Assembly (NCBI GenBank): GCA_027487835.1
Contig: JAIYCU010000028.1
Span: 22,930-86,929, forward strand
Source of the DNA: Bacteroidota bacterium
GTDB lineage: Bacteria > Bacteroidota > Bacteroidia > UKL13-3
Length of the DNA stretch: 64,000 bases
Direction: 5' to 3'
Part shown: positions 7,115 through 57,588 of the stretch, piece by piece
Layout: each line of letters opens with the position of its first letter
Numbering within the stretch: position 1 is the stretch's first letter
Program-made: the position numbers and the translations under genes
The notes under the pieces: generated by a model
The model's input: only the letters and a program-made list of their open reading frames with translations
Databases searched by the model: none
What the model was told of the DNA's origin: nothing

Positions 7115-7239
7115 TTGCTTGGGTAGTGCTAAATAAATTGGTAAAAAGTGCTTCTAAAATAAAGTAGTAAAAATAGTTAATTTAAACCTAGAATAAGGAT
7201 TACTTTAATTATTAAACTATTAAGTTATTTCTAACAAAA

Positions 7240-7267
7240 AAGCCCGCCAACTTTCGTTGGCGGGCTT
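7240..7267. terminator. rho-independent terminator (agcccgccaac-tttc-gttggcgggct) flanked by A/T tracts
   Basis: 11-bp GC-rich stem with a 4-nt loop. T-tract on the minus strand, directly downstream of the 7285..13998(-) stop. Confidence 0.8.
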
Positions 7268-7284
7268 TAAAAAAATACTTAGAA

Positions 7285-20654: not shown

Positions 20655-20760
20655 TATTGTTTACCAAACAAACTTACCTAATCCTTTTCAATCAAAAAAT
20701 ACAACTTATTTAAAAGCCATGGCAGGTTATGTTAAATTAAAAATTAAGGTATGTTTGGCG
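20655..20760 (-). promoter_or_regulatory. conserved promoter-bearing intergenic element, copy A (core reads GGTATTTTTTGATTGAAAAGGATTAGGTAAGTTTG on the minus strand)
   Basis: Shares the acccaatccttttcaatcaaaaaatac core and the gccatggcaggtt block with copies at 26.4, 28.4, 31.9, 41.3 and 46.45 kb. Contains a Bacteroidetes -7 TAnnTTTG box, 60-140 nt upstream of a minus-strand start. Confidence 0.6.
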
Positions 20761-28367: not shown

Positions 28368-28490
28368 ACCTGCAACTTCATTTCGATAATTAAACCAACA
28401 TACCCAATGCTTTCCAACCAAAAAATACCTTGAAGAAATATGACATTATTAAAAGCCATTGCAAGTTCTGTTACATTAAAACTTACTTAA
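28368..28490 (-). promoter_or_regulatory. conserved promoter-bearing intergenic element, copy C
   Basis: cctgcaacttcatttcgataattaaac...acatacccaatgc...caaaaaatacc...gccattgcaagttctgtt. Upstream of the 26557..28239(-) start. Confidence 0.6.
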
Positions 28491-31844: not shown

Positions 31845-31930
31845 TTTAATCCCAGCAACTTCCTCTTTTATCTACAAACAAACATACCCAATCCTTTTCA
31901 TTCAAAAAATACCTGTAAGTGGATATGGTT
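31845..31930 (-). promoter_or_regulatory. conserved promoter-bearing intergenic element, copy D
   Basis: cccagcaacttcctctttt...caaacatacccaatccttttcattcaaaaaatacc, 50-130 nt upstream of the hydrolase start. Confidence 0.6.
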
Positions 31931-34781: not shown

Positions 34782-35541
34782 TTAAGTTAGTTTTTATAGG
34801 TCAACGAATTTAATAAATTTTACACTTTGTTTTTTACTTTACATAAATTTAACCTGTATATTTAATAGACTTAAATTCAGCCAGCCCAATATTTAATTTA
34901 TTTACATAAATGTAAATTTCGGAAAGATACTATTAGGTTCTTACGTTCTTATTGCCGGTATGTTTTTAATTAATGTTAAGCTAACTTTTTTGTATACTTC
35001 GGTTTGTCTTTCATAAACAAGTCAGCCTTTTATTTTTCAAAAAGTTCAAATATAAACCTCATTCTGTTAGCATAAATTGTAAACGGCTTCGGTCTGCAGG
35101 CTAGGTCAAAAACTCTTTCTAATTCGTTTTAACCTTTTACTAATGCTGGAGGTATAGTCAAATGGTCGTAAAGGTCAGTAAGTGAATTAATAAGAAATTT
35201 TAATATTGCATCCAATACTTTTTAAGCTTTTGCAACAATTGCTTGTATTTATTTAACAATATGGTATAAGTATTGGGCTACACAAACAAATGCGCCTCTT
35301 GGCAATAACGCAACTGCTTTGGTAAAAAACCATAACAAATGGGCCTGCCATATTTCTCTGGTGGGTAGAATAATATAAGCTTCCTGTAAACAATTGGCTA
35401 AATGCAATATCTTGGGTTCAGTTTGATCCAACTCAAATTTTGCATACTTAAAAGCGGGTAAGTTTAAGACGTGCTTTTGGAAGAGAAAAGCGCAGAAGTA
35501 TTATAATAAGAAAAAATATAATATTGGAATTTTATAATGCC

Positions 35542-36726
35542 TTAAAATCTTGAAAACAGGGCTCTTAGAAAACATATAAAAGTATTATTAGTTAGTGATA
35601 AAATAAAAAGTCCAATAGCAAACACTGGAGTCAACCAAACTAAGAAACGAATAATGTTTAAATAGCTTTTTTGCTTACTGTGTAGATTATTAATTTTGGT
35701 AAATGTTGTTGTGAAATCATCACCAAGAATTCCAATTTTCTTATCATCAACAGAGTTTTCAAATCTATCAATATCATCTTTCACAAAGTCTATTGCAGAA
35801 AATTGATTACGCAGAAGAACTTCAAGTAAAACACTAAAAACAAATGCACTTAAAACCAAGGCGAAATTGAAATAGATTTTTTCGCCAGTAAGGTCAAATT
35901 GTCCAATTATTAATAAAAAAGCTGCTGGTATTGCCACAAGTTTTGTTTGTGCATCATTAATTACTGCTTGGATTTTTTTGCTGTATTCAATTATCTCCTT
36001 GTCAATTTCTGATTTAAATTTTTGATAAGAATACTTTTCTAAATATAAACTGTGGCTTTTATGGTAATTTAATGTAAGGTCTGAGAAGTTGGTAACCAAA
36101 AAATTGAATCTGTTTTTAGGTTCAATTATTTTTGATAGTGAAGCTATCAATTCATTTGTAAAAATAATTCGTCTCTCCTCCCTATCTGCTGAATCTTGAA
36201 TATGGCTAATTAAACTGTCTAGTTCTTTTATTTCAATTAAATCTTTGGCTGAATAATCCGTAGTTAGTATTAATTGCTTTGCTTGAAAAAAAACAATTTC
36301 ATTGCCCTTTTGATAATCTGAAATACTTCTTAAAAAAGAAATAAGTTTTGTAAATGCTGTATAATTTTGGATTTGAACTGGTTGAACTTGTTGGGTTGAA
36401 ACGTAATTCAGTGAGTTTACAAAGTATTTATTTTGAATATTAGATTGAGATGAGAAATTTATTAAATCTTCGAATGATTCAAAATACTTTTCATCTCCAA
36501 GTTGGTTGGAATATAGTCTTACTTTAATTCTATCGTTAATTGCAATTTGGTCAACTAGTTTATTTCGATTTAGAACAATTACAAAATTCTCAATGCAATT
36601 TGCGGCTGACAAACTTTTTAGTTTTTCTATTTCATCAAGATTAGGCACAAAAAAGCCGACTATTTCATTTCCTGAAATAGTAACTTCTTCAAGTCTTTGT
36701 CTTATCTGAATAAAATCGTTAAGCAT
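35542..36726 (-). CDS. hypothetical protein with C-terminal 3-TM region (candidate membrane effector; partner of the NdpA-like gene)
   Basis: 394 aa. The soluble N-terminal ~270 aa is charged and helical. TM helices are LVAIPAAFLLIIGQF, FALVLSAFVFSVLLEVLL and FLVWLTPVFAIGLFILSL. A 3-nt gap separates it from the upstream gene. Confidence 0.6.
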   Translation of the reverse strand: MLNDFIQIRQRLEEVTISGNEIVGFFVPNLDEIEKLKSLSAANCIENFVIVLNRNKLVDQIAINDRIKVRLYSNQLGDEKYFESFEDLINFSSQSNIQNKYFVNSLNYVSTQQVQPVQIQNYTAFTKLISFLRSISDYQKGNEIVFFQAKQLILTTDYSAKDLIEIKELDSLISHIQDSADREERRIIFTNELIASLSKIIEPKNRFNFLVTNFSDLTLNYHKSHSLYLEKYSYQKFKSEIDKEIIEYSKKIQAVINDAQTKLVAIPAAFLLIIGQFDLTGEKIYFNFALVLSAFVFSVLLEVLLRNQFSAIDFVKDDIDRFENSVDDKKIGILGDDFTTTFTKINNLHSKQKSYLNIIRFLVWLTPVFAIGLFILSLTNNTFICFLRALFSRF

Positions 36727-36729
36727 TGA

Positions 36730-37524
36730 TTATTCGGGGTCTTCTTCATTCGCAAATTGTCTTCTTAAATCATCAGGCAAATTAGTTATTCGTAATTCAT
36801 TTGTCTGTTGGTTGTAAAAAATACTTTCATTTACTAAGCCACTATCAAATTCAATTGTTAGTTTTTTGCTTCGATAAACGTAAAATTTCAAAGTCTTTAG
36901 TGTTTTATTGTGGCCTTTAATAAGAGAGCTTACTCTATAATCTTCACTCGCTGCAAATTCTTGAAACATGTCAGGCTCATCAGCACTTATCATTGATGAT
37001 ATGTGATGCAATGAAATATCCTCTTTTCTTCTAGTTTGAGCATAGCAATAATTCAGAACTTGATTTCTTAAATTTTCTTCTTCTTGAGTATCTAATTCTA
37101 GTTGTGGCAAATAATCGAGAAAAGCTCTTTTTAAGGATTCTGATGATTCTTTTGCAGATGTTTGGTCTGTACATCCAATAAATCTTTTAAAATAATTAGA
37201 AACATCTTTTCTTCCTCTTGCGAATGACAAATACGTTTCTTCATTATTGTCCCAACGAGTAACATTAACTGAATTGGCAACATCTAATTTGTCAATATCA
37301 AGACTGAATATTTCTTCAATACTCAAATTGTCATTTATATTGTATTGCTTTTTGTTGTTCAGCATTACAGTCATTACAAATTCTTCATTTTGTAGTGTAT
37401 AATGAGCAAAAACTACATAACCTCCTGTGGCTTGCGGAACTGCATTAATTACACCCAATAAATGATTCATTGCAGAAGCTGTGAAATCTAAAAACTGCTG
37501 TTCAACAAAGTAGTTTCTTAACAT
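36730..37524 (-). CDS. nucleoid-associated protein NdpA/YejK (NA37) family homolog
   Basis: [34 protein letters not shown] aligns with NdpA [34 protein letters not shown] aligns with YLTFLKGR. C-terminal [13 protein letters not shown] aligns with TIKGTPPNLRDQL. Confidence 0.6.
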   Translation of the reverse strand: [264 protein letters not shown]

Positions 37525-37736
37525 TGTTTGAAAAGGAAAAGTTACTGCATTCGGGTCAAAGATTCCATAGTTTGGATTTGACTTTTTGTAATAAACTTGC
37601 TTTATGTTTGTTACAAATTCTGTTTCTCTTTCACCGACTGGAAGTAGGTTTTCACGTAATGTTATTGTTGCATTACCTTGTGATTCTTTGTCCAGCCTGT
37701 GAACTATTATTGAGTGTAATTCTATATTATAAATTT

Positions 37737-38081
37737 TTACAATTCCCCTTTAAAAGCCTTGTCCAATAAACTTGGAATTAGTTTGGTTAATTCCTGTTCG
37801 GTTTGTTTGTGATGTTCTTTAACTGCATTTGTTTTATTGAGTAGTTCAACAAATTCTCTTTGCAATTCAATTGAAGGAACTGGAACTAATATTTTCATCA
37901 ACTTGTCTAAGCCCAATGTTTTGTTTCTTCCTATCACAATAATTTTTCCGTCAGTGAAAGTCCGCTGTTCAAGTATTAAATCGTCTGACCATTGGCTATC
38001 ATACAGCTTGGGCAACACTTCCTTTCGGCAAGTGTCCGCTTCGCTATCGTGATTGTCAATATGTATAGTTTTATCACTCAT
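37737..38081 (-). pseudogene. chimeric relic ORF: HsdR N-terminal domain fused to HsdS C-terminal conserved tail (type I R-M remnant)
   Basis: N-terminal SEADTCRKEVLPKLYDSQWSDDLILEQRTFTDGKIIVIGR matches HsdR_N (SEAxTRxxLIDPxLxxxGW...). C-terminal PVPSIELQREFVELLNKT...LIPSLLDKAFKGEL is the canonical HsdS C-terminus. Confidence 0.55.
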
Positions 38082-38145
38082 TTACTCGTCATAATATAGT
38101 TTGTCAAAATACCTTTTTTCTCGATGTATTGGCTCGGCTTTTTAA

Positions 38146-41100
38146 TTAAGTTGGTTGTTCATCCTCTATATTAATTTTTAGTACTATTGCAAATTGAGCA
38201 AAACTTGATGATAGGTTAGTTTTAGTTATGTTCCTATTTTTGTGATTTCTGAATTCATCTTCAACTTCTGCTGGTTCAAAATGTTCACCTAAGATAGTGG
38301 CTAAATAAATTGAAGTTAATTTGTCAAAATCATTAGTTGGCTTTTGGAAATTCAAATTAATTGTAGTTTTTAGTTTGTGAATTTTTGAGATTTCACTCTT
38401 TGGTATAGATGGAATCAAAATCTTACTCAAAGCCCATGAAGTAACTCGTTGCAAATTATAATCACCCGATTTAATCCATAATTTTGTCAAGTATATAACA
38501 TATTGTATCCTTAAACTATCTGGGAAAATATTTACTTCTCCTGACCAAGCAACACTCCAGCATATTGAGAAATGACAATGGGCATCATTTGTTTTGAGTA
38601 AGTCATACATAATTTTGAATATTTCCTCTGAAACTGAAATTTCTGAAATTCCTATTTCAAGTGGTCGAAATGATAAACCATACGCAAAGTTCATCATGCC
38701 TAATGCTGCTATACATTTATTTTCATTCGTTTCGCTTTTTAATGATAAAAGAATTTCATTTGGAATTGAAGATATATTTTCTGAATTCGCCAAGTCAGTA
38801 TAGAAAATGTCTGCTAAAGTTGACCCTAATGGGGACGAATATTTATCATCATATTTTCCAAAAAAACATTCTTTAACTCTTTTTCTAAATGCATTTCCAA
38901 ATTTATTTTTAAGAATAATATCTGTGTTTCCTCTTCCAAGGATTGTATAGATGTTTTTCGCATACCATTCAATTGCAGTGCCTAATAAGTCTGGACTAAT
39001 TTGAATTTCATTTGCAAGGCAGCTACCTAAAAGGGAGGGCGCAAGTTTATCTTCCTTTAGTTGTTCCTTTTTTTCTTTAGTGGCAATAATTTTTGATTCA
39101 GAAATTAAATATTCAATTAAGTCTTTTGTATCCCTTTCTAAAAGAACAGCAGCCAATGGTATTACCTCTTTCCAATTTTCATTATTTACATTTGGCTTAA
39201 TAATATCCACAACTTTACTTTCAATATCTGATAATGGAATAAACTTTTTTACTATCGCTTTCGCTGTCAAATACTCTTGGAAACTTAAATGCAAAAATTC
39301 ATATACCGCAGTTATGTTACCTGAATCAAGTTGTTTATGACCTGTCATTATTAGTAAGCTGCTTCTTGATTCAACCCTTTTTATAAATTCAGTGGGATTA
39401 ACATTTGTATAGCCTAAAATTTCTGGCATTTGTTTACGTGCATCAATGAGACAACCATTAAGTTCTTCTGAAGTAATCGTTTGTTGACCATTTTTAGTCA
39501 TCCAATATGCTACAAAAGCAAGTTGGGGTTCTGCTTCTTCAATGTCAAGAATTTCATGTCCTTCAACATTCCATGTCACTAAGAGAAGCTTAATCATTTC
39601 TTGATATAAAACACTTCTTTTAGTTGGAAGATACCCTGCCCATCTTTTAACAAAAAGTAGAGTAGTTAAGAGAAGTGGATTCTCGGCTAATACTACTATT
39701 CTATTGTCCTTTATAATTAAATCACTTAGCTTATTTGCTTCTTTAATTGTGTTTTCTGAGTCGTCTATAATTGCTTTGTGCCATTTTAAACACAGCTCTT
39801 CAATTTCCTCACCAATCAAATTTGAAACTGTATAGTTCTCACAATAAGTTGCTAATGAACCAGCTACAACTCTAAATCCCGCCTCTCGTGATGTTACTAT
39901 AATATTAATTGTAGGGTATGTTGCAATAAAGGTTCTCAGTTGGTTTACAAAGGCAATTCTATTCTTGTCTTCTGCAATTTCATCCAATCCGTCAATTAGT
40001 AACAACGCATTACCATTTTGCAATGACTTTGAAACTAAAATTGAAAAATCATCAGCGCAAGAATGAATTTCTGCTCTAGCAGGTATTCCGTTAATAATAT
40101 CAGTAATACTTAAAGTAACATTGTCCCCAAGTTCTCTACACCTTAAAAAAATTGGAAACCAATCTTTGTCAGGAAGTTTGTCATTTATTTGTATACGCCT
40201 TTCAGGGAAAGCATATGCAATTGCTATACGCTTAATAAGAGTTGATTTTCCGCCACCTGGCTTTGCAAGTATTGCAAGTTTTGATTTCTTTTCTAGGATT
40301 TCACCTATACCTTCTCTCGGTTTATCATCAAAATCAAATTCATCATTTATCCTTATTTGCAGTTTTTTACTCAAATGAAGAGGGACAAAAATATTTTCCA
40401 GCTTTACTTTAACCGAACCAGCTTCTTTATCAGTAGGTAATCCTTCAAATTGGATTTCACCTAATTCATTTTCTAAATACTTGAAATATTTTTCGCCTGT
40501 CTCTTTTAAGTTTCGTTTGGCTACTTTGGTTGTTTCCTCTTTGTTTAATAGGGTTAGTCCATCAAATAAATTTTTAATGTTATTGTCTATTAAAATTATC
40601 TCTTCTGCTAAATCTTTAATAAGAGGCTTTCCTTCCGCATGAACTAAAGCAACATGAGATGGTTTTTGTCCGTGCGAATCTGAATAATAAATTGCCCAAA
40701 CCCAACCTTTATCGTAAGCCAATAAATCGGCATAATCAAGCATATATAGCCCTGATATTAAATTAGATGAAGATGAAATTGCCTTCTCTATTGAGACTAA
40801 AACTCTTCCACGAATCAACTCCTCTACAATTTTTTCTGGCTTAATTAAAATTACTCTTTTATTGTCGGCTTCATTTTCTTGTTCAATTGCAGTTTCCTTA
40901 AAACCTGAAAGAGATATAAAATATCCTACAATGCTAATGCCTTTTGCCCCTTTTTCTTTTTTGCTTTTTCTTTTTTCGACATCAATAGCACCAACAAATT
41001 TGTTTATGTCCGCGCCACCTATTTTTTCTGAGTGAGCTTTACACTCAGCAATAGCTATTTTTTGTTCCGTTCTGTGATTTGAACTCAAATCTAATTCTCT

Positions 41101-41232
41101 GCCTGATTTGTGAATATTAAGCCTTGGTTCATCATATCCCAAAGTATGGAAAAGGTCAGACATCAATCGTCCAAAAAGATCACCTTTTTTGTTTGAATCA
41201 ATTTCTAAAATTTCAATGTTTCTAAGTTTCAT
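38146..41232 (-). CDS. NLR-like antiphage STAND protein: N-terminal Mrr-like PD-(D/E)xK nuclease, central NACHT NTPase, C-terminal helical-repeat sensor (bNACHT/Avs-like)
   Basis: N-terminal ELDL...AIAECK PD-(D/E)xK motif. Walker A AKPGGGKSTL. NACHT Walker B LLLIDGLDEI. NACHT-specific IIVTSRE. About 500-aa helical repeat C-terminus. Confidence 0.8.
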   Translation of the reverse strand: MKLRNIEILEIDSNKKGDLFGRLMSDLFHTLGYDEPRLNIHKSGRELDLSSNHRTEQKIAIAECKAHSEKIGGADINKFVGAIDVEKRKSKKEKGAKGISIVGYFISLSGFKETAIEQENEADNKRVILIKPEKIVEELIRGRVLVSIEKAISSSSNLISGLYMLDYADLLAYDKGWVWAIYYSDSHGQKPSHVALVHAEGKPLIKDLAEEIILIDNNIKNLFDGLTLLNKEETTKVAKRNLKETGEKYFKYLENELGEIQFEGLPTDKEAGSVKVKLENIFVPLHLSKKLQIRINDEFDFDDKPREGIGEILEKKSKLAILAKPGGGKSTLIKRIAIAYAFPERRIQINDKLPDKDWFPIFLRCRELGDNVTLSITDIINGIPARAEIHSCADDFSILVSKSLQNGNALLLIDGLDEIAEDKNRIAFVNQLRTFIATYPTINIIVTSREAGFRVVAGSLATYCENYTVSNLIGEEIEELCLKWHKAIIDDSENTIKEANKLSDLIIKDNRIVVLAENPLLLTTLLFVKRWAGYLPTKRSVLYQEMIKLLLVTWNVEGHEILDIEEAEPQLAFVAYWMTKNGQQTITSEELNGCLIDARKQMPEILGYTNVNPTEFIKRVESRSSLLIMTGHKQLDSGNITAVYEFLHLSFQEYLTAKAIVKKFIPLSDIESKVVDIIKPNVNNENWKEVIPLAAVLLERDTKDLIEYLISESKIIATKEKKEQLKEDKLAPSLLGSCLANEIQISPDLLGTAIEWYAKNIYTILGRGNTDIILKNKFGNAFRKRVKECFFGKYDDKYSSPLGSTLADIFYTDLANSENISSIPNEILLSLKSETNENKCIAALGMMNFAYGLSFRPLEIGISEISVSEEIFKIMYDLLKTNDAHCHFSICWSVAWSGEVNIFPDSLRIQYVIYLTKLWIKSGDYNLQRVTSWALSKILIPSIPKSEISKIHKLKTTINLNFQKPTNDFDKLTSIYLATILGEHFEPAEVEDEFRNHKNRNITKTNLSSSFAQFAIVLKINIEDEQPT

Positions 41233-41261
41233 TAATCTTTTGTTTTTAAAAAGTTATTTTG

Positions 41262-41490
41262 AAGCTGTAATGCCGCAAATTTGTTTTCCATCAACTAATT
41301 TAATACATGCAACTCCAACTTATTTAACAAACTTACCCAATCCTTTACAAACAAAAAATACCCAAAAGTGGGTATATGAAAATATTCTAAATGAATAATG
41401 ACACATTGCACATAAAGTATTAATAACTTAAAACGAAAGATTCAATACACATTTCTACAAACCATTGCAGGTTCCGTTCAACTAGAATTT
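41262..41490 (-). promoter_or_regulatory. conserved promoter-bearing intergenic element, copy E, containing perfect palindrome ATACCCAAAAGTGGGTAT (41358..41375)
   Basis: gcaactccaacttatttaacaaacttacccaatcctttacaaacaaaaaatacccaaaagtgggtat...aaccattgcaggttccgtt, upstream of the NACHT gene start. Confidence 0.65.
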
Positions 41491-41586
41491 ATCTCATTAT
41501 GTTAATTGTTTCTATTGGCATTCGATGGTTTTCAATCCATGGCTTGGCTTGGGGTCAAAATGAAATGCTTGCTGTTGTAGGCAGTG

Positions 41587-42063
41587 TTAAAGAGAAAACA
41601 CCAAAGGAATTACAATTGAAAAAATAAAAAGAATGTAATAAAATATATTTTCCCAAATTTTAAATAGAGAAATTAAAAAGTAGCTTATTTTATATTTACG
41701 TCTCATGTTTGGCTTAACTATTGTAATAAGGGGTCCATGTAAACTTAAAATATCTTTTTCATTAGATTTTATTAAATATTTCTCGAATAATTCGATTGTT
41801 TCTTGTAAATAAATATATCCAGTTAAAATTATTATGTGGAGAGTAAAAAATGTTATCACAATGCTTAATAGTAAAAGCTGAATTTGATTTAATTCAAAGC
41901 CTTTAGTTATTGAAAATCCAAAAGCCGAATTCCATAAAATTACAAACCAATACTTTAAATTTGTTAAATACTCGTATCTTTTTGTTCTAAGTTCAATAGT
42001 ATTGTTGAAATTTAAAAGCAGAAAGTCTCTTTTAAATTTTATATCTTCTGGCTTAAAGGACAT
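41587..42063 (-). CDS. small polytopic membrane protein (hypothetical)
   Basis: 158 aa with 3-4 predicted TM helices. Sits between the NACHT and RloC-like genes. Confidence 0.5.
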   Translation of the reverse strand: MSFKPEDIKFKRDFLLLNFNNTIELRTKRYEYLTNLKYWFVILWNSAFGFSITKGFELNQIQLLLLSIVITFFTLHIIILTGYIYLQETIELFEKYLIKSNEKDILSLHGPLITIVKPNMRRKYKISYFLISLFKIWENIFYYILFIFSIVIPLVFSL

Positions 42064-42440
42064 ACTTTGTTTTTTGCTTTAAAATTTGGGTATATAGAAT
42101 AACATTGTCATAATTTCAGAGTGTGAAAAACCTCATCAAACTTTTTAGTGTAAAAATATCAAAAAATGAATGATTAGGCAAGTATCTTGGTAGTTAAATT
42201 TGCATCAGCAAAACAATTATGGATAACATCAAAGTTAGTAATATCGATCAGATGGAGCTTTGTTGTAATTCTGGAGATACCTTTACACTTCTTCCATTTT
42301 TTTGTTTCTGGATAGACTCATATTTCACTCCAAAGCTTTTTACAAAGCCTATTAAAGTTTTGCCAGTTTGTTGGTTTTCTTAATGATTTTGAAATTTCCA
42401 TTATTAAATGCGAGGTGTCCCTAAAGGTTATAGCTTAACA

Positions 42441-42556
42441 ATTCGGAGGTTTGCGATGGCGGGGATTATTAGCACTAAACTTCATTCGGAGAACTGAATT
42501 TCCACCTTGCACAAAAGTGTCTGCGATGCACGGAACCCCGCCTATTGCAAATGTGC
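42441..42556. other. GC-rich structured element E2: 15-bp long-range stem (tttgcgatGGCGGGG ... CCCCGCCtattgcaa) enclosing about 70 nt, 3' of the RloC-like gene
   Basis: Local GC far above surroundings. Homologous (about 65-70% identity) to element E1 at 45075..45205. Stem base pairs covary with E1 (C:G vs T:A, G:C vs C:G). Shared inner motif GTGTCTGnGAnGCACnGAACC. Confidence 0.6.
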
Positions 42557-42604
42557 TGCTACAAGTTGGGCTTTTGTCTGTCTGAATATATGTTGTTTCA
42601 AATG

Positions 42605-44995
42605 TCATAATTGAACTTCAATTAAGTTAAGAGTGTCTTGTATTAGGTTGTCCAATTCAGGTTCAGTAATAGTATTAGGGTTAATACCTAACATTGTGTA
42701 ATCTGGAGTTGGGTCACCATGATGTGGTTTCCAGGAAACTCCATTAATTAAATGAAGTGTAGATATTATTGTTGTCCTGTTTGCATTGTCCCTAAATACA
42801 ACTGGCAATGTATCTAAAAATGTAATTAATCTTCCAAATGTTTGTATTCCTGTCATAGTTCGAACTTCCTTGTAGAATTTGAACCGTAAATGTGCTTCAA
42901 GAACATTTCTCAACCAACCTAAAACAGTGTCTTTAATTGCATGGTTTGGGTTACTTCTAAAAGCCTCCAATGCTTCAATATGTTTAAAGTATTCAATTTT
43001 TACCAATTCTTCTAAATCACATAGTTCAAGTTTAGATGCTTTGGCTACGAAATCTTCCTTTATACGAAGTGTGCATTTTAAGGTTGCTCCAATGTCTTTG
43101 CCTATTTCATGAAGAAAATATTCATTGTGGCTTAAAACAACCACCTGCTTTAGTTGTTGAAATAATGTTCTAATAATTCCAATTGTATAGGTTCTTCTAT
43201 TAGTATCTAAACTTGATAAAGGGTCATCAAAAATTAAAATTTTATCTTGGCGGTTTGGATCAATGTCAAGTTTGGATAAAAAGAACGCTAAAGCAATTGT
43301 GCTTTTATCTCCCTCGCTCAAACATTCCTTGGCATTAAATGGTTGATTTGGGACAAATGATATGTCCTTGCCGTCTATTGTCAATTTGTAAGCGATTTTG
43401 CTTTGTGTTGCTCTTCCTGCTGGAGCAACATGAACAACATCCTCTATTCTAAAAAGTGTCTTGAAAACATTGCCCAAATAATGGTTGATACGTGTCTGGT
43501 AGCTATTGAAAAAAGTTGCTGCTGTGGTTTGCTGTTGTTGCGATAAAGCTGTGTATGCTGTTTCTAAACCTCTAAGTGTTTGTTTCTCGGCAGACAATTG
43601 AGTGCAAAGCGTAACAATGGGAGTTTCATATCTCTTTTTAATTCTTTTTAGTCTATCAACCGCAAGCTGTGCATTTGCAGCAGTCTGAATACCTGCACGA
43701 AAAGTTGTAATTGCAGCATTGTAAGTTGTAATGCTTTGATTGTAGCTTTCAATGTTTGTGTTAATGGTCTGTCCAGAAGACAGAAAAACAGTAGCGGTGG
43801 CGGTAGCCACCGCTACTGTAGGATTTTGTATTTTTTGTTGGAGTGAATCAATTAACCTTTGAAACTCTGCTCTTAAAACAGTTTCGTCCGCAATGATGTT
43901 AAAAATTGGTGGATGAACTGTATTTGGCAAGTGCGTAGCCCATAACGTTACTCTCCCTGTATTTGTCTGATTGATATTGTTTATCGCTTGTATGGCAGCG
44001 TCCAAATTGAAGTTTTGAAGCGAAGTCAAATGTGATTGTAGTCGTAGAACTAAAGCGTTAAAGTCAGCATTAAATTTAGTGATATAGGCGTTTAGAATTT
44101 CAACATTGCCATCAATAGTCTGCATACAAAATGGACAAGAAATTGTGGGTTCATTTGCTGCTTGTTTTCTCTCCACATATGCAAATCCTCTTTGCAGCCA
44201 ATTTTCAGGTCCGTCAAGTCCGTTGTCTGTCAAGTCTTGACAATGATTTGAAAACAAAGTTTCCAAAGCTGCATTTTGAATTGCTTGTGATGTTGTCTGT
44301 AAGTCTGTGATAAGAGAAGTGAAATCAATACCCGATATTATTCGGGTGAGAGCAGTAAGTTGTTGTAATGTTTGAATTATTGTGTTTGCATTCGCACTCG
44401 CTAATGCAGCCTCCGCCGCTGTAATTTGTTGGTCAATTCCGCTAGATTGTGTTACAGGAATAGCAAGAAATGAAGTAATTAAGTCAGCGGTCAAACTGTT
44501 TCCCACTTGCTGAATTAATTGTTGTTCAATATTTGTTATTGATTGTTTTGATATGACTTTAGCAGCTTTGTTTTGTTCAATTTGATTTTGAATTGCAATT
44601 CCTTGTGCACCGATAACAAATTGATGAAGTTGCTTTTTATGTTCATCATTAAAGTCAAACCCTGAATAGATATTGTCGTTGACAAAATGAATGTCAAAAA
44701 TCTCAATATTATCAAAAGGAGTTGTCCAACCAGCAGCCCTTAAGGTGTGAAATGTATTCGGTGTCCCTGTTTGAGTTATTTGTGCTGCTTGTGCTGCTAT
44801 ATGGTTTGTAGAAATTCTACTTCTAACGATTTCAGGTTTGTTGGTTGTCAAGGAACGAAACACTGAAGTTAGTGTGGTTTTACCACCTCCATTGTTGCCA
44901 TAAATTAAGGTCAGCTTTTGAAAATTAATCTGTCCAGCAGCAGTGTAGTTGCGGAATTTTCCAATGGAAGTAAGTCGTTCAACTTTGTTTATCAT
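42605..44995 (-). CDS. RloC/PrrC-like anticodon-nuclease-type ABC ATPase (AAA_13-like): split ABC head with long coiled-coil insert, CxxC zinc-hook, C-terminal HEPN-like domain
   Basis: Walker A GNNGGGKTT at the N-terminus. About 450-aa Gln/Ala-rich coiled-coil with SCPFC. ABC signature LSEGDKSTIALAFFL, Walker B ILIFDDP, H-loop VLSHN. C-terminal roughly 190 aa carry an Rx5H match to the HEPN Rx4-6H motif (LRNVLEAH). Confidence 0.7.
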   Translation of the reverse strand: MINKVERLTSIGKFRNYTAAGQINFQKLTLIYGNNGGGKTTLTSVFRSLTTNKPEIVRSRISTNHIAAQAAQITQTGTPNTFHTLRAAGWTTPFDNIEIFDIHFVNDNIYSGFDFNDEHKKQLHQFVIGAQGIAIQNQIEQNKAAKVISKQSITNIEQQLIQQVGNSLTADLITSFLAIPVTQSSGIDQQITAAEAALASANANTIIQTLQQLTALTRIISGIDFTSLITDLQTTSQAIQNAALETLFSNHCQDLTDNGLDGPENWLQRGFAYVERKQAANEPTISCPFCMQTIDGNVEILNAYITKFNADFNALVLRLQSHLTSLQNFNLDAAIQAINNINQTNTGRVTLWATHLPNTVHPPIFNIIADETVLRAEFQRLIDSLQQKIQNPTVAVATATATVFLSSGQTINTNIESYNQSITTYNAAITTFRAGIQTAANAQLAVDRLKRIKKRYETPIVTLCTQLSAEKQTLRGLETAYTALSQQQQTTAATFFNSYQTRINHYLGNVFKTLFRIEDVVHVAPAGRATQSKIAYKLTIDGKDISFVPNQPFNAKECLSEGDKSTIALAFFLSKLDIDPNRQDKILIFDDPLSSLDTNRRTYTIGIIRTLFQQLKQVVVLSHNEYFLHEIGKDIGATLKCTLRIKEDFVAKASKLELCDLEELVKIEYFKHIEALEAFRSNPNHAIKDTVLGWLRNVLEAHLRFKFYKEVRTMTGIQTFGRLITFLDTLPVVFRDNANRTTIISTLHLINGVSWKPHHGDPTPDYTMLGINPNTITEPELDNLIQDTLNLIEVQL

Positions 44996-45074
44996 GCTTG
45001 AAAGGTGTTCTTGTCAATTGTTTGTATTATGCAGTCAGCTTCATGTTAGCACGGTCGTCATAGCCTTGCTGGTA

Positions 45075-45205
45075 AAGTTTTCGGGCTTGGCGAAGGTGGC
45101 GATTTTCACCACAAATGTTGATGCGGAGAACCAAACTTTGATTAACCTCAAATGTGTCTGTGAAGCACTGAACCGCCACTTTTGCCAAACCCGTGTTATG
45201 TGCAG
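45075..45205. other. GC-rich structured element E1 (homolog of E2): long-range stem ttggcgaaGGTGGCG ... CGCCACttttgccaa, between the SIR2 and RloC-like genes
   Basis: Direct-orientation homolog of E2. 15-bp stem with two G·T wobbles. Compensatory changes relative to E2. Covers the spurious 62-aa ORF 45027..45215. Confidence 0.6.
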
Positions 45206-45211
45206 TATTTT

Positions 45212-46393
45212 TCACTTTATAAATTCAGATTTTTCAAGATTTGGATAAGTCTCAATGAATTCCTCAAACGTGCCTTTAAAGGTTTCAAGTTGACCAATTT
45301 GCTTTTGGGAGAAAATTTGATTTACTTTTTCCCAATGAGCATCTGATGATGTTGGGTCTACTACTTTGATTATAGGTTTATTTCTATTCCAATTTAAAGC
45401 ATGTTGTAATAAATTTAAAAATGCTAGGTCTGATTGAGGAAATGAATATCCGATTATAATAATTTCTTGTGCTTCAATTAGTGATTTGAATGTTCCATCC
45501 CAAAGTTCTTTAGCTGTAGAATTTTCGTTCTTACCTAAAATTGGGGCAACTAAATCATGTTCAAGTTTTGCTCCACAAATGCCACATTTAAATCGGTCAA
45601 ATAAATTTCTTATTTCTTCTGTACTATGTTTGTCATCGTAATACATTGAGTAACTATTCACAATTTTGTAGTTATGGATAGTCTTACAGTTTGGACATTT
45701 AAACCAATCAAACGACCCATGTAATTTAATCAATTCATGGTGTTTACTGTAAGTCCATTTATATTGTTCATTACGGATTAAATGAGCTCCGTCACTAAAT
45801 GTATAGATTGGTACTATATAATGTGGCACAACATTAAAATTGCTTTCTACGCCAACTACACCCCAGATGTGGTCAAAATATTCGTCATCAAGTTTACAGT
45901 CATAGTTAAATGATATAGTACTTAATACCGGTATGTTATTGTCGTTAATTGTTTTGAACCATAGTCTATCAAAGAAATTTTTGTATAATTCTTTTGAGTT
46001 GTCTAAAAAAATTGTGTTATCAATGAATTTAGAAGTTTTGTTGTCAATGGCAGAAAAGATAATTTTTGTAAGCGTTTTAAATACTTTAGTTAAAGTGTCT
46101 TGGTTCAGAAGATAATTGTCAACATGAATTATAGAATTGTTTCGTATAAAATAATCAAGTTGTCCCAAGAGATTTTCATAATCAATCCACTCTTTTTCCA
46201 AGTCTTTTCCTTGCAATTCCAAAACAATTGATTTTACTATTGTAAATACTTCCTTAAAATGACTTGATTTACATTCCTTGATAAATTCAATTATAGATGT
46301 TGGAAGCTGATTAAGAGTTGGAATTCCATAAGCAAAAGAAGCTCCTGCCCCGAAGACACAAGCTGTTCTCTTTATATTTTTATGGTCTGTCAT
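45212..46393 (-). CDS. SIR2-like (SIR2_2/DSR-type) defense-associated protein with C-terminal Cys-rich zinc-ribbon
   Basis: N-terminal ACVFGAGASFAYGIP matches the SIR2_2 hallmark (hFhGAGhS..GhP). C-terminal CPNCK...CGICG. Defense-island context. Confidence 0.65.
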   Translation of the reverse strand: MTDHKNIKRTACVFGAGASFAYGIPTLNQLPTSIIEFIKECKSSHFKEVFTIVKSIVLELQGKDLEKEWIDYENLLGQLDYFIRNNSIIHVDNYLLNQDTLTKVFKTLTKIIFSAIDNKTSKFIDNTIFLDNSKELYKNFFDRLWFKTINDNNIPVLSTISFNYDCKLDDEYFDHIWGVVGVESNFNVVPHYIVPIYTFSDGAHLIRNEQYKWTYSKHHELIKLHGSFDWFKCPNCKTIHNYKIVNSYSMYYDDKHSTEEIRNLFDRFKCGICGAKLEHDLVAPILGKNENSTAKELWDGTFKSLIEAQEIIIIGYSFPQSDLAFLNLLQHALNWNRNKPIIKVVDPTSSDAHWEKVNQIFSQKQIGQLETFKGTFEEFIETYPNLEKSEFIK

Positions 46394-46417
46394 TTAATAT
46401 TGCAAATAACTTGATTA

Positions 46418-46500
46418 TAAACGCACTAATGCACCCAATATCAAACAAACATACCCAATCCTTTTTAATCAAAAAATACCCAAAAGTGGGTATATTTAAA
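46418..46500 (-). promoter_or_regulatory. conserved promoter-bearing intergenic element, copy F, containing palindrome ATACCCAAAAGTGGGTAT (46476..46493)
   Basis: caaacatacccaatcctttttaatcaaaaaatacccaaaagtgggtat is near-identical to copy E. On the coding strand it carries the TTTTTTG / TATGTTTG (-33/-7-like) boxes just upstream of the SIR2 gene. Confidence 0.65.
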
Positions 46501-46510
46501 ATAGTCTATT

Positions 46511-47002
46511 TTAAGATTCCTTATTTATAATCTCTGAGTAATTGCTGTTAGCAAGAGCTAACTTTTTTGATTTAACTAAATTTTTTAGGTCTTTGAGGGA
46601 ATAGCCAGATGTTTTTTGGAAATGAGGTAAATCCGTAAATTTCCAATCACCTCCCCACTCCCATCCATACCTTTTACAAATGGTTACTACTTCAAACCAA
46701 TCCGCTCTTCCATCTTTATCAAAATCTACATTGGTTTCCCAACTAGCATTATCAAATTTACTATTGCCTTTATTATCAACTAATAAAACGATATCAAATG
46801 CTAATCCGTAATTATGATAACTCTGGACGCTTTTAGCATTTGTAACTTTTTTGCCTGGCTTGGTTCTGCCAATCGCATACAGCTCATCTTGTTCTTTAAA
46901 CGTTCTTAAGGCGTATGAAAATCTACAAATGGCTCTTCCAGGTAAAGCTTGGTAAATTTCACTATACATTTCAATTACTTCTTTTCTAAGCAATGGGTGC
47001 AT
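46511..47002 (-). CDS. peptidase M15 family (L-Ala-D-Glu / D-Ala-D-Ala peptidase, endolysin-like)
   Basis: SVQSYHNYGLAFDIV and DWFEVVTICKRYGWEWGGDW...DLPHFQ match the zinc-binding H/D/H architecture of M15/VanY-like cell-wall peptidases. Confidence 0.75.
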   Translation of the reverse strand: MHPLLRKEVIEMYSEIYQALPGRAICRFSYALRTFKEQDELYAIGRTKPGKKVTNAKSVQSYHNYGLAFDIVLLVDNKGNSKFDNASWETNVDFDKDGRADWFEVVTICKRYGWEWGGDWKFTDLPHFQKTSGYSLKDLKNLVKSKKLALANSNYSEIINKES

Positions 47003-47100
47003 TAATTTAATGCGTTCTAAGGTAATTTTATCCTTAATGGCTGATAATAGGTTTAATGGTTTTACAATTTATATTTTCATTTTTTAGATTTCCAAAAAAT

Positions 47101-47128
47101 AGCACTGCACAAAATTTTGTGCAGTGCT
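47101..47128. promoter_or_regulatory. perfect 28-bp palindrome AGCACTGCACAAAATTTTGTGCAGTGCT flanked by A6/T6 tracts, in divergent intergenic region
   Basis: Exact inverted repeat with no mismatches. Lies between the divergently oriented M15 peptidase start (47002) and the 47184(+) gene. Confidence 0.5.
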
Positions 47129-47183
47129 ATTTTTTGTTTTCAAGAATTTTTGTTAAATAATGTAGGCTTAAATTTTTTAAAAC

Positions 47184-47918
47184 ATGAAAGTATTAAAAGA
47201 TGGTGCCATGACGCGCCAAGCAGCAAACTTCTATTCCCTTATTGAGATGGCTACCAATTTGGGCACAGAATTTAAACCTATTAAAGAGCAATTGAAACTC
47301 GACAAGTTAAATGCTCTACACAGCAATGTGATTAAAGCCATTGATGATTGGACGCAAGCGGAGAACGCCTTACAACGGGCTACTTCTTTAAGAAAAGACA
47401 CATTTGACAAACTCAATTCCTTTGTTACTTTAATCCATCGAGAGGTTAAAATAGCAGGTATTGATGGCGAGGTAAAGGGGGACATCGAATTAACCCTAAA
47501 GCAGATTCGTGGCAATAAAAGAGTAACTAAAAGTAAAGAAGATAAGCCAATTGAAAACAGCGCTGTTGCCAAAACAAGTTACAAAAATGCTTCTATGGAA
47601 AAGAAGCTAGATATATTTGCCAAACTAGTTGACATTTTAAGTGTTACACCAGAGTATGATAGCAGCTATGCAGATTTAAAAGTGCAGGCCTTAAAAGACA
47701 AGGTAGTTGAATTAAACACTTTACAACAAAATTATCTTTCCGCAATACTAACTCTTCAAGATGCCCGCTCCAAACGTGATATAATTTTAGACGACCCTGC
47801 CACTGGCATGATTAGGGTAGGTCAACTTTTAAAAGAATTTCTCAGAATTTACTACAAAGATTCCAAGACCCAACTCAAAACCATTAGTGCTATTAAGTTG
47901 ACCAAACGTACAAATTAA
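47184..47918 (+). CDS. hypothetical protein (244 aa, charged/helical)
   Basis: ORF only. No recognisable motif. Confidence 0.45.
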   Translation: MKVLKDGAMTRQAANFYSLIEMATNLGTEFKPIKEQLKLDKLNALHSNVIKAIDDWTQAENALQRATSLRKDTFDKLNSFVTLIHREVKIAGIDGEVKGDIELTLKQIRGNKRVTKSKEDKPIENSAVAKTSYKNASMEKKLDIFAKLVDILSVTPEYDSSYADLKVQALKDKVVELNTLQQNYLSAILTLQDARSKRDIILDDPATGMIRVGQLLKEFLRIYYKDSKTQLKTISAIKLTKRTN

Positions 47919-48054
47919 TTAGTTCTAACATTTTATTATAGTAGGGATAAGTGGGAAAATAATGGCTTCCTACTTATCCCTTTTTTTGGCACGATCCCAA
48001 AAAGTGTTTTGATAATCTGATAAATGTTTTAACTTCCCCGACAAATATTATGGC

Positions 48055-48285
48055 CTATCCGACAAAGGTTTTGACCTCCCCGTTAAGTGCTTTTGCCTCC
48101 CTGACAAATGTTTTTACTTGCCCGACAAATGTTTTGACCTCCCCGATAAGTGCTTTTGCCTCCCCGACAAATGTTTTTACTCGCCCGATAAATACTTTTG
48201 CCTCCCCGACAAATGTTTTTACTCGCCCGACAAATGTTTTGACCTCCCCGACAAAAGTTTTTGCCTCCCCGTTACTTCTGAAAAC
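48055..48285. repeat. minisatellite: about 11 tandem copies of a 21-bp unit (consensus CCCGACAAATGTTTTGACCTC with TTTTACTCG / TTTGCCTC variants)
   Basis: Direct tandem repeats visible by eye. Both overlapping ORFs (48050..48415+, 48055..48309-) only translate the repeat into heptad-like repeats. Confidence 0.85.
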
Positions 48286-48514
48286 CTTGACTAAGTATCC
48301 AAATTCCAATGCATCAGTAAATCCGTTTTATCTGATAAACATATTTTTCATGCGCCACTTGAATGAGGCCATAAACAATATTTCTATAAAAAAACAAATA
48401 CAAGACCATAATTAATATGACTTAATCCTATAAGTAGGATTTACCTTTATCAATAGGTAGATTTTTCTTTTATAGTATCTCTTAAGTATTTACGATTGTA
48501 TAAAAAATTAAACC

Positions 48515-49189
48515 ATGGTAAATACATTAAAACCAAACGAGAAAAAATACTTGTTGATTCATGCAAAATTTGAATCGCTAAAAACTACTGAAGAAGGATT
48601 ACACAACATTCAATGGGAGTGTTTGTATAAGGGTTTATTGGCAGAAGAAATATTAATTCAATATGAGCAACTTAAAAACAAATACGATATAATTATTATT
48701 GATAGGTATTTACCTGTTATGGATACGCTAAATTTTTTAATTAAATATAGAGAGCTAGATCCCATAACACCAGTACTGGTTATAGCGCATGGATTTAATT
48801 TTGAAGACTACCATCAAATTAAATTAATGTCAAACACTTACTATGGACCAAAAGAAATATCTATGCTAAAACTTAGTCTTCAAAATTTTCATAAAAATGA
48901 AATCTTAGACCTAGAGCACTCCCTTATAAAACATTGGGTAGAATTAACAAACACCTATTCGCTAGTGACTTTTGAGGGGGCAATTGAAAAAATTAAAATA
49001 ACAACTTTCGAACAAAACTTATTGAATTTAATTGGAAAAGGTTTAAGCAATAAAGAATTAGCTAAACAATTAAAGGCGAGTATGTCTCATGTTCATCATA
49101 CAAAAAGCAAACTCACCAAAACATTTGGCCTATCACATAACCGCTTGCTACTTGCCTATGGTGTTATTTATAATTACATTGAAATTTAA
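48515..49189 (+). CDS. LuxR/GerE-family regulator with N-terminal receiver-like domain
   Basis: C-terminal HTH NLIGKGLSNKELAKQLKASMSHVHHTKSKL. N-terminal alpha/beta receiver-like region. Confidence 0.65.
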   Translation: MVNTLKPNEKKYLLIHAKFESLKTTEEGLHNIQWECLYKGLLAEEILIQYEQLKNKYDIIIIDRYLPVMDTLNFLIKYRELDPITPVLVIAHGFNFEDYHQIKLMSNTYYGPKEISMLKLSLQNFHKNEILDLEHSLIKHWVELTNTYSLVTFEGAIEKIKITTFEQNLLNLIGKGLSNKELAKQLKASMSHVHHTKSKLTKTFGLSHNRLLLAYGVIYNYIEI

Positions 49190-56427: not shown

Positions 56428-57309
56428 ATGCGTAGTGTTCAAACCCTTATATTATTTCTTACTACCTTACTAGCACAAGGTGTGTTGGCACAAGACAGCC
56501 TAAGTACGCCTAAGTTTAGTAATCGCCAAAAAATAATTATGGGCAGTTTAGTACTGCAACAAGCAGGCAGTATGTATTTAGAATACAAATGGTGGTGGGA
56601 GCATAACTACCATGATTTTCACCATGAAAATGATGGGGGCTTAAATAATTACAGTTTAGGAATAGATAAAGTAGGCCATTTTTATACTTCTTATATGTAT
56701 AGCAACCTATTATATGAGTTAATGAAATGGGGCAAATTCTCAGAAAAGAGCAGCGAATGGGTGAGTGTTGCCCTTCCCTTTGCCTGGGCATTAAGTATAG
56801 AAGTTGGGGATGGCTTTTCTAAATTTGCATTTAGTAGTCAGGATTTACTAGCAAACTCAATGGGCATTGCCTATGCCTTGGCCCAAAGAAAAGTGGATGT
56901 TTTACAAAAGTTCAAATTCAAATACAGCTATTACCCTTCGCCATATTTTAGAGAAAGGGATATGAAAGGCTGGTCATTGGTTTCTGATTACGACGGACAC
57001 ATTTATTGGTTAACGGCAGATGTGCACGGACTCTTGCCCAAAAGGTTTAAGCCGTATTGGCCAAAATACCTAAACTTGGGTGCGGGTTATGGCATACAAA
57101 ACTTTAGACCTTTAGATCCTTTTACAGATGGGCCCATGTTATTGCGGAAGTTTCATATTGGCTTTGATTATAACTTAGCTAAAATAAAGGTAAGCAAACC
57201 CGGTTGGCAAGCCTTATTAAAAATGGCAGATCATTATCACTTACCTGCACCCGGATTTTCGAAAGTTGGCGGGGATAACTGGCGGTTTAAGGCATTATTG
57301 TTGCAGTAA
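56428..57309 (+). CDS. secreted hypothetical protein (DUF2279-like periplasmic protein)
   Basis: Signal peptide MRSVQTLILFLTTLLAQGVLAQ. DKVGHF motif. A 2-nt gap to the upstream gene suggests an operon. Confidence 0.45.
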   Translation: MRSVQTLILFLTTLLAQGVLAQDSLSTPKFSNRQKIIMGSLVLQQAGSMYLEYKWWWEHNYHDFHHENDGGLNNYSLGIDKVGHFYTSYMYSNLLYELMKWGKFSEKSSEWVSVALPFAWALSIEVGDGFSKFAFSSQDLLANSMGIAYALAQRKVDVLQKFKFKYSYYPSPYFRERDMKGWSLVSDYDGHIYWLTADVHGLLPKRFKPYWPKYLNLGAGYGIQNFRPLDPFTDGPMLLRKFHIGFDYNLAKIKVSKPGWQALLKMADHYHLPAPGFSKVGGDNWRFKALLLQ

Positions 57310-57588
57310 GGCCTTGATTTAAGGGCTTACTATAAATAGTCGCACCTAAAAAGCCACTTACATAGAAATTTTATCCTCTAAAATAAGCAAGCAATTCCCA
57401 TTTTGGGGTTAATAGCTGCCTTTTTCCCTTTTTAATACACACATTGCGACAATTAATACAGCAACTCAAATAAATTTATATCTATTGGTATAAAATTTAA
57501 GGCAATTAAACATTTTAGTTGAAGACTTAATGGGATAAAAAATAGCTTCACATATTATTAATGTAGTCCGTTCTACCTAAATTAATCT

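Follow-up and report, generated by a model that had tools for sequence, protein, structure and literature searches.

SIR2 and RloC-like genes as putative integron-type cassettes in a probable anti-phage gene cluster of a Bacteroidota bacterium

We analysed a stretch of 64,000 nt (hereafter the window) from contig JAIYCU010000028.1 of a Bacteroidota bacterium (assembly GCA_027487835.1), and in it eight consecutive open reading frames (ORFs) on the minus strand that together occupy 35542-47002, about 11.5 kb. The source population is uncultured, and exact look-ups of the proteins returned only near-identical contigs from two sequencing runs. In the direction of transcription the ORFs encode an endolysin-like M15 peptidase (46511-47002), a SIR2-like protein (45212-46393), an RloC-like ABC ATPase (42605-44995), a hydrophobic orphan of 158 aa (41587-42063), an Mrr-NACHT STAND protein (38146-41232), a relic of type I restriction-modification (R-M; 37737-38081), a YejK/NA37 nucleoid-associated protein (called as 36730-37524) and its membrane partner (35542-36726). 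A first-pass annotation of the same DNA had placed in this interval an antiphage-type cluster of roughly 12 kb, partly decayed and with no visible integrase, and had proposed DefenseFinder or PADLOC as a check; its view of an old defence island in decay proves largely right. Searches with the PADLOC, Pfam, NCBIfam and PHROG profile libraries, along with a homologue collection of 5.8 billion proteins, bear out the domain identities it gave (NA37, R-M relic, Mrr-NACHT, RloC/PrrC-like, SIR2 and M15), and four modules inside the 11.5 kb match known or candidate defence families, namely DS-1/PANGU-II, Mrr-NACHT, RloC-like PDC-S06 and SIR2. Its count of seven genes, each tied to defence or mobile DNA, needs correction; there are eight ORFs, and the 158-aa orphan has neither a profile match nor a tie to defence. 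The mechanism of mobility was overlooked altogether: two attC-like sites appear to make the SIR2 and the RloC-like genes separate integron-type cassettes, and the family to which these sites belong is shared with phages.

The two sites, A at 45065-45203 and B at 42428-42563 (both on the minus strand), stand at the 3' ends of the SIR2 and the RloC-like cassette, respectively. They are direct repeats of about 139 nt that flank the RloC-like gene, 74% identical to each other, with a long stem that carries compensatory substitutions. A covariance model, R1, built from 19 site copies scores site A at 143 bits (E 3e-43) and site B at 93.9 bits (E 1e-26); these are the sole copies that it finds in the window, 2,637 nt apart and on the same strand. 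No further attC-like hairpin was found past the 158-aa ORF, past the NA37 partner or between the NACHT gene and the R-M relic. In site A the R'' core GCACATAAC at 45203-45195 is intact and the R' core reads TTT for GTT at 45076-45074, while in site B the R' core GTTAAGC lies at 42439-42433 and R'' reads CTTGTAGC where CCGGTAAC is expected. Two other identities were tried for these elements and rejected. As small protein genes they fail because a nucleotide identity of 74% comes with an amino acid identity of only about 35%, hence we regard them as not coding, and as a known RNA they have no Rfam match even at E≤10 and no tRNA.

Cassette 1, the SIR2 gene with site A, would run from 46409 to 45077 on the minus strand as judged by the site cores. 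Its left junction, G|TTATTTGCAAT at 46399-46410, lies 15 nt upstream of the SIR2 ATG and carries the motif GTTAnnnGCAAT/G, which is the 3' end of the attC family, and the six bases past GTT match the reverse complement of the R'' flank of site A at five of six positions (GCAAAT against GCACAT). Cassette 2, the RloC-like gene with site B, would run from 45075 to 42439 on the same strand. For this one the boundaries can be read off relatives: in four unrelated contexts the nucleotide homology to the window opens exactly at GTTACCGGCAAGG, about 80 nt ahead of the ATG, and in three of the four it ends in CCGGTAAC and then the hairpin site, the fourth (L153) having a decayed 3' core. In other loci the cassette reads GTTACCGG...CCGGTAAC, with ends that are mutually reverse complementary, and many of the contigs that carry an RloC-like homologue are 2.5-2.75 kb long, the length of the cassette itself (2,637 nt).

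In pattern scans the site family turned up on about 20 contigs of IMG/VR and on at least 120 from metagenomes, with no BLASTN match in cultured phage genomes; a copy on phage contig L084 agrees with site A at 96% of 113 nt. Scanning with R1 reveals same-strand arrays in which the sites are spaced 0.4-3 kb. Across 46 copies TAACA...C-GTT(A/G) is almost invariant, with TAAC kept in 43-45 and GTT in 42-45 of 45 copies. Pairing in the 17-bp stem reaches 94%, against about 40% in slid controls, and double substitutions at every one of its 17 pairs show covariation; it should be noted that the stem alignment was fitted to the covariance model, so that the pairing is somewhat inflated, though the gap to the controls is large. 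The decisive signal lies in the flanks of the sites. Of 26 consecutive pairs, 14 (nine of them perfectly) have six nucleotides past GTT that are the reverse complement of the six nucleotides before AAC of the next site, compared with 7.7% of other pairs (resampling p<1e-4), and the two flanks of one and the same site match in 5/45. Such complementarity is what circular cassettes leave behind when, as in integrons, they recombine at G|TT. A cassette start that complements its own R'' is thus found in the arrays, in the RloC-like cassette elsewhere and, at five of six bases, in the SIR2 cassette.

The Logan contigs of the window break inside site A. Metagenome contigs likewise often start or stop no more than about 150 nt from an attC-like site (L165, L218, L193 and many others; L283/L284), and since contigs end near the sites we regard the family as an assembly-breaking repeat with many contexts per sample.

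In five metagenome loci that carry the site, a tyrosine recombinase adjoins arrays in which each ORF is followed by a site. Three of these recombinases (L166, L173 and L277) are transcribed away from the array, which is the layout of canonical integrons, and in L173 and L277 the nearest detected site is 86-120 nt from the start of the recombinase gene; the recombinases of L239 and L247 are longer and co-directional with the array. They are 35-62% identical to one another and about 30% identical to IntI1, and reach 183-225 bits against the NCBIfam model 'XerA/integron integrase' (cut-off 220), a threshold that two of them exceed. Genes for terminase (3e-130), tail sheath and primase mark the IMG/VR loci as genuine phages. 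In their arrays the sites stand between single genes, which encode DnaB, two N6/N4 methyltransferases, two Mom proteins and an RNA ligase (L118 3850-11084; L127 3632-5515; L143 6890-9475; L117 9441-10533).

The arrangement resembles integron cassettes and clusters of attC sites lacking integrases (CALINs) in that an ORF is followed by an imperfect-palindrome site with inverse AAC...GTT cores and the cassette start complements its own R''. As in integrons the arrays are same-oriented and elsewhere adjoined by a tyrosine recombinase, and as in CALINs the window holds no integrase; its two sites share a strand and are separated by under 4 kb, and the 64 kb contain no recombinase, so cassettes 1 and 2 together would form a two-site CALIN. 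They are probably frozen in place, as core bases of both sites are mutated. Unlike integron attC sites, the elements are 139 nt long with an interior that is partly conserved in sequence, and they occur in Bacteroidota-type metagenomes and their phages. CALINs in phages have been described before, including methyltransferase cassettes in a Polaribacter phage (PMC9892861), and so have defence cassettes of integrons (bioRxiv 10.1101/2024.07.02.601719 and 10.1101/2024.07.02.601686). For Bacteroidetes proper, a single complete integron is listed in the IntegronFinder 2.0 paper.

The cargo of cassette 1 is a SIR2-like protein of 393 aa and a predicted NADase, which matches the PADLOC SIR2 models at 4.8e-12 and 5.7e-11 and carries the motifs GAGAS at 15, NYD at 163 and HG at 225 along with a CPNC/CGIC zinc ribbon. 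Useful sequence relatives were not found in the PDB. Its AlphaFold model (pLDDT 73, pTM 0.78) is best matched by the SIR2 of E. coli SIR2-HerA (Foldseek E 9.5e-12, TM 0.53), followed by ThsA, DSR2 and sirtuins. With the SIR2 subunit of SIR2-HerA (Nezha) and the SIR2 domains of ThsA and DSR2 it shares fold, size and the GAGxS, NxD and HG motifs; unlike these it stands without HerA, SLOG or any other partner, is only 14-17% identical to them in sequence and belongs to a very rare family, with 10 relatives among the 5.8 billion proteins. No HerA was found in the window or beside the SIR2 homologues, and the pairing of SIR2-HerA is thus missing. By analogy, the protein would act by depleting NAD+.

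Two of the SIR2 relatives deserve mention. The closest chromosomal homologue (L161 8001-9300, 71% identity) has a frameshift near its C-terminus, hence another member of this rare family seems to be decaying. In L159 (5312-9161), a mobilisable element with relaxase and coupling protein, a homologue of 63% identity follows an HNH_2 gene after 10 nt and adjoins GmrSD and a DNA methylase; the HNH_2-SIR2 layout could be a different partner arrangement for the family.

Cassette 2 carries an RloC-like ABC ATPase of 796 aa with a zinc-hook coiled coil and a putative C-terminal HEPN-like domain. PADLOC, the proposed check, gives PDC-S06 at 5.3e-70 (235 bits), LmuB at 4e-17 (61 bits) and PrrC at 4.4e-8, and Pfam gives AAA_13 at 3.1e-44 (152 bits). 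We find Walker A at 33, a CPFC zinc hook at 287, DDP (Walker B) at 590, LSHN at 621 and RNVLEAH at 696, the PrrC profile (4e-8) covering residues 543-712. As in RloC and PrrC, the ABC ATPase head is split by a coiled coil with a CxxC zinc hook, and the C-terminus has an R-x5-H motif that may be HEPN-like, as theirs is; unlike in these, the candidate PDC-S06 profile fits best, with PrrC at 4e-8 only, and the gene of the window sits on an attC-bounded cassette. Homologues are 74-92% identical and always 796-797 aa long, from Niastella, Chlorobiales, Flavobacterium, Petrimonas and others, and are found on a chromosome, on conjugative elements and in a position beside an intact type I R-M; JGI labels them 'wobble nucleotide-excising tRNase'. 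Close relatives were not found in IMG/VR, nor useful sequence relatives in the PDB. The domain make-up suggests that the protein may cleave tRNA in the anticodon loop. Within the coding sequence, a perfect 14-bp inverted repeat with a 4-nt loop at 43788-43819 encodes ...VAVATATATV...

At the other end of the cluster the YejK/NA37 gene (36730-37734, minus strand) is followed by the gene of its 394-aa membrane partner, which starts 3 nt past the NA37 stop, and the two match both DS1 models in the correct order. The first resembles Pag2A, or the first gene of DS-1, and the second Pag2B, or the second gene. The NA37 protein matches Pfam NA37 at 1.5e-52 (179 bits, cut-off 24.6), YejK at 3.5e-56 and the NCBIfam DS1_1 'nucleoid-associated anti-phage protein' at 2.1e-29 (103 bits against an equivalog cut-off of 330). 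The partner, a predicted effector with C-terminal hydrophobic segments at 263-307 and 355-387, matches phrog_5023 at 4.4e-37 and DS1_2_antiphage at 6.2e-19 over residues 82-371 (290 residues; 68 bits against a cut-off of 315).

The profiles begin about 70 residues into the NA37 family, hinting at a truncation of the called ORF. However, the frame is open for about 70 more codons, to 37734, with no ATG, GTG or TTG ahead of 37524. A full HMMER search with the extended translation returned 1033 relatives, typically of 327-335 aa, and the Met of the closest full-length homologue (P0131, 54% identity) aligns with the ATA codon at 37725-37723. The gene is therefore full-length and otherwise undecayed, with its start changed from ATG to ATA, and it either has a weak non-canonical start or was inactivated very recently.

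By gene order and profile matches the pair appears to correspond to DS-1 of DefensePredictor, which is type II PANGU (Pag2A/Pag2B). DS-1 was validated experimentally in the DefensePredictor study (PMC13092281). Type II PANGU has been validated too, with abortive infection once the nucleoid-associated protein senses phage-induced genome degradation; in the published model the YejK-like protein quits the nucleoid when the phage degrades host DNA and then activates the membrane partner, and in Bacteroidota only sporadic cases are reported (bioRxiv 10.64898/2026.04.06.716658). The window shares with these systems an NA37/YejK gene followed within 3 nt by a membrane-protein gene, both recognised by DS1 models; it differs in the low scores (103 against 330 and 68 against 315 bits), in the ATA for ATG and in its Bacteroidota host. 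As the scores are far under the equivalog cut-offs we suggest the pair to be a distant DS-1 relative, whose partner may attack the membrane.

Upstream of the NA37 gene, 37737-38081 (minus strand) encodes a 114-aa in-frame HsdR'-'HsdS fusion. Residues 13-58 match positions 2-48 of EcoAI-family HsdR (5e-6), and residues from about 50 to 114 match 36 type I S-subunit models at their C-terminal end, over the final ~60 residues, the best at 4.5e-11. No HsdM, intact HsdR or intact HsdS was found in the window, which thus lacks a type I R-M system, and the ORF appears to be what an in-frame deletion has left of a type I R-M operon.

The STAND protein of 1028 aa (38146-41232, minus strand) combines an Mrr-like restriction endonuclease domain (Mrr_cat 4.2e-6, residues 19-137, 27 bits with cut-off 21; D48...E63-x-K65) with NACHT (7.3e-10, residues 322-487, 39 bits with cut-off 26.7; Walker A GGGKST, Walker B LLIDGLDE at 411). 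To its C-terminal ~540 aa no domain could be assigned and no repeats were recognised, and useful PDB sequence relatives were not found. A validated precedent is bNACHT25 (Kibby et al., bioRxiv 10.1101/2022.07.19.500537), with which it shares the N-terminal Mrr-like endonuclease with D...ExK, the central NACHT with Walker A and B and the long C-terminal region. Unlike bNACHT25 and the bacterial NLR-related NACHT proteins, it matches the PADLOC and NCBIfam defence NACHT models at the domain level only (EruA 3e-6). From these domains the protein is predicted to cleave DNA.

The remaining two ORFs are neighbours without a demonstrated defence role. The 163-aa product of 46511-47002 (minus strand) is a LAS-type M15 peptidase (Peptidase_M15_4 9.3e-17) with H63-x6-D70 and H127, and its matches to endolysin PHROGs (5.9e-26 to 2.3e-23) uphold its description as endolysin-like; no PADLOC or other defence profile matches it, and it lacks a link to defence. 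Being endolysin-like, it is therefore taken to be phage-derived. The 158-aa ORF (41587-42063, minus strand) has no match in Pfam, PADLOC, NCBIfam or PHROG and finds only itself among the 5.8 billion proteins, and it may not be a real gene.

A repeat search detected a host intergenic repeat (family D2) in five copies on the minus strand, at 20667-20702, 28392-28429, 31875-31913, 41326-41377 and 46444-46495, upstream of five different genes; two copies are in the cluster and three outside. The repeat is 36-52 nt long, with copies about 90% identical, and consists of a 7-bp GC-poor terminator hairpin with T-run, then a TTTG...TAnnTTTG box, a putative Bacteroidetes-type promoter. The copy upstream of the NACHT gene, annotated over 41326-41390, has its terminator-like hairpin at 41375-41358. 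Directly upstream of the cassette array, the copy at 46444-46495 has the hairpin at 46493-46476, then the T-run and a TATGTTTG box. A scan for sigma-70 promoters gave no excess over shuffles, the sigma-70 model being uninformative for Bacteroidota. The repeat may be a mobile promoter/terminator unit, and since it precedes both the NACHT gene and the array and recurs outside, the cluster would be transcriptionally integrated into the host.

GC content is 0.27-0.33 over most of the cluster as against 0.353 for the whole window, and the segment at 42.5-45 kb, which holds the RloC-like cassette, has 0.35-0.39 and the opposite GC skew. On the left the cluster is bounded, as first described, by a gene-poor gap of 760 nt (34782-35541), whose sole ORF is of 60 aa with a TTG start. 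The first description was equally right on the missing integrase: tBLASTN detected no integrase, recombinase or integrase remnant in the 64-kb window. Neither did we find in it phage structural genes, tra/mob genes, a tRNA or any Rfam RNA at gathering score. The 80 loci inspected in the nearest genomes, which have the adjacent desaturase at 71-74% aa identity, have zero neighbouring genes in common with the window, and a scan of the metagenome collection with the left-flank protein gave zero relatives.

Taken together, we consider it likely that the region is a composite, partly decayed anti-phage cluster of independent modules, including two integron-type cassettes. The catalytic motifs are intact, and the structural model of the SIR2 protein confirms its fold. 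What is observed directly is the gene content with its homologies, the boundaries of the cassettes, and the site family with the arrays it forms; the biochemical activities and any anti-phage phenotype are what sequence comparison would predict. One module would be a DS-1/type II PANGU pair with a sensor gene that is weakly translated or newly dead, another the deletion scar of a type I R-M operon. In a third, infection sensed by its C-terminal region would lead the Mrr-NACHT protein to form oligomers and then to cut DNA. The SIR2 and RloC-like genes would be tandem cassettes driven from the host-type promoter repeat. The decay that was already suspected is evident in the HsdR'-'HsdS scar, the change of ATG to ATA in the NA37 gene and the mutated cores of both sites.

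Several observations weigh against this explanation. The DS1 scores of the NA37 protein and its partner are under the NCBI curated cut-offs, the NA37 gene has no canonical start codon and so an intact, translatable sensor gene is lacking, and PDC-S06 is a candidate system only. The cores of the window's sites are non-canonical, with TTT as R' in A and a decayed R'' in B. In the phage arrays the ORFs face opposite to the sites, unlike in classical cassettes, in the bacterial arrays (L166, L193) and in the window. The array recombinases reach only 178-223 bits against TIGR02249 'integron integrase' (cut-off 265) and match in two stretches, and the IntI-specific insertion may be absent from them; owing to these divided matches below the cut-off we write attC-like, and IntI/Xer-like rather than IntI. 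Finally, no island-free relative was found, neither among the 80 loci of the nearest genomes nor by the metagenome scan with the left-flank protein, and the insertion of the cluster as an island is therefore putative.

Other explanations were weighed against the same evidence. The SIR2 and ATPase genes are adjacent and co-oriented, the ATPase has the weak LmuB match (4e-17), and the best structural match of the SIR2 model is the subunit of SIR2-HerA, a protein that acts together with an ATPase; one could thus think of a single two-gene system, Lamassu-like (LmuA-Sir2 with LmuB) or SIR2-HerA-like, in which the ATPase senses and activates the NADase. This seems very improbable to us. The single-gene candidate PDC-S06 fits at 235 bits against 61 for LmuB, and no Lamassu pair is made up here. 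RloC-like homologues of 79-92% identity have no SIR2 neighbour in six independent contexts and the SIR2 homologues no such ATPase beside them, the two kinds never co-occurring in the loci inspected. A full attC-like site stands between the genes, each of which has its own cassette boundaries, and on this distribution and these boundaries the idea of one system was rejected. The sites in turn might be structured RNAs or mobile regulatory cassettes, such as terminator/promoter units like the PeSLs of T4-type phages or a phage-mimicked RNA antitoxin, instead of recombination sites. Their stem is strongly conserved by covariation, their interior is partly conserved in sequence (GTTCTCCGCATC), in phage genomes they are intergenic between small genes, and both window copies keep an open frame, though the low amino acid identity noted above argues against coding. 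Still, that the 3' flank complements the 5' flank of the next site is predicted by recombination at G|TT and not by an RNA element, and precise units of gene plus site in unrelated contexts are likewise predicted by recombination; IntI/Xer-type tyrosine recombinases adjoin the arrays and no Rfam family fits, so we judge an RNA or regulatory role to be quite improbable.

It also seems unlikely that a degraded prophage or conjugative element left this cluster as its remnant, as opposed to the cluster being a chromosomal defence hotspot. Such an origin would suit the endolysin-like gene at one end, the prophage relatives of the NA37 partner (phrog_5023), the frequent occurrence of RloC-like and SIR2 homologues in conjugative or mobilisable elements and the near-identity of site A to a phage-contig copy. 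Against it, the window has no integrase, structural phage genes, tra/mob genes or tRNA, the host-type promoter repeat is found both inside and outside the cluster, and the GC content of the cluster is near that of its flanks.

Returning to the cassettes, it is possible, if short of probable, that freshwater and soil Bacteroidota and their phages share one cassette pool, built on a single attC family of about 139 nt and IntI/Xer-like recombinases, in which hosts stock defence and phages counter-defence. The host stock would comprise the SIR2 NADase and the RloC-like anticodon nuclease, and the phage stock orphan methyltransferases, Mom and an RNA ligase able to repair nicked tRNA, so that a single recombination system would shuffle the genes on either side of the arms race.

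Taken as a defence island, the locus is nothing unusual: every one of its modules can be placed in a described or candidate family, and several are decaying. What makes it valuable is the base-pair-level view of how two defence genes arrived, as apparent attC-bounded cassettes, in a phylum from which integrons are rarely reported, and with the same site family organising phage genes for anti-restriction and tRNA repair. Should the recombination activity be confirmed, the idea of 'integrons as defence biobanks' would reach past Proteobacteria, the site would serve as a simple sequence tag to mine defence and counter-defence cassettes from metagenomes, and we would have a natural case of host-phage module exchange via one site-specific system. 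The rare SIR2 family and the NA37 sensor with its ATA start are small testable leads.

Some features beyond the cluster were recorded as well. The right neighbour (47184-47918) has no Pfam match and one weak NCBIfam match (PQLLE family, E 1.7e-4, below the cut-off). In the divergent intergenic region between it and the M15 gene lies a perfect, spacerless palindrome of 44 nt (22+22 nt; 47093-47136), for which Rfam gave spurious miRNA hairpin matches only. Between 47918 and a LuxR-like gene at 48515, about 12 copies of a 21-nt tandem repeat with a 63-nt super-period and 73-84% matches occupy 48022-48271, and the 121-aa 'ORF' at 48050-48415 is probably a mere reading of these repeats. Over 57309-64000 no closed ORF of at least 120 aa is listed, and a long ORF probably runs off the end of the window there. 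Far to the left of the cluster, at 1781-13998, lie two very large minus-strand ORFs of 1777 and 2237 aa.

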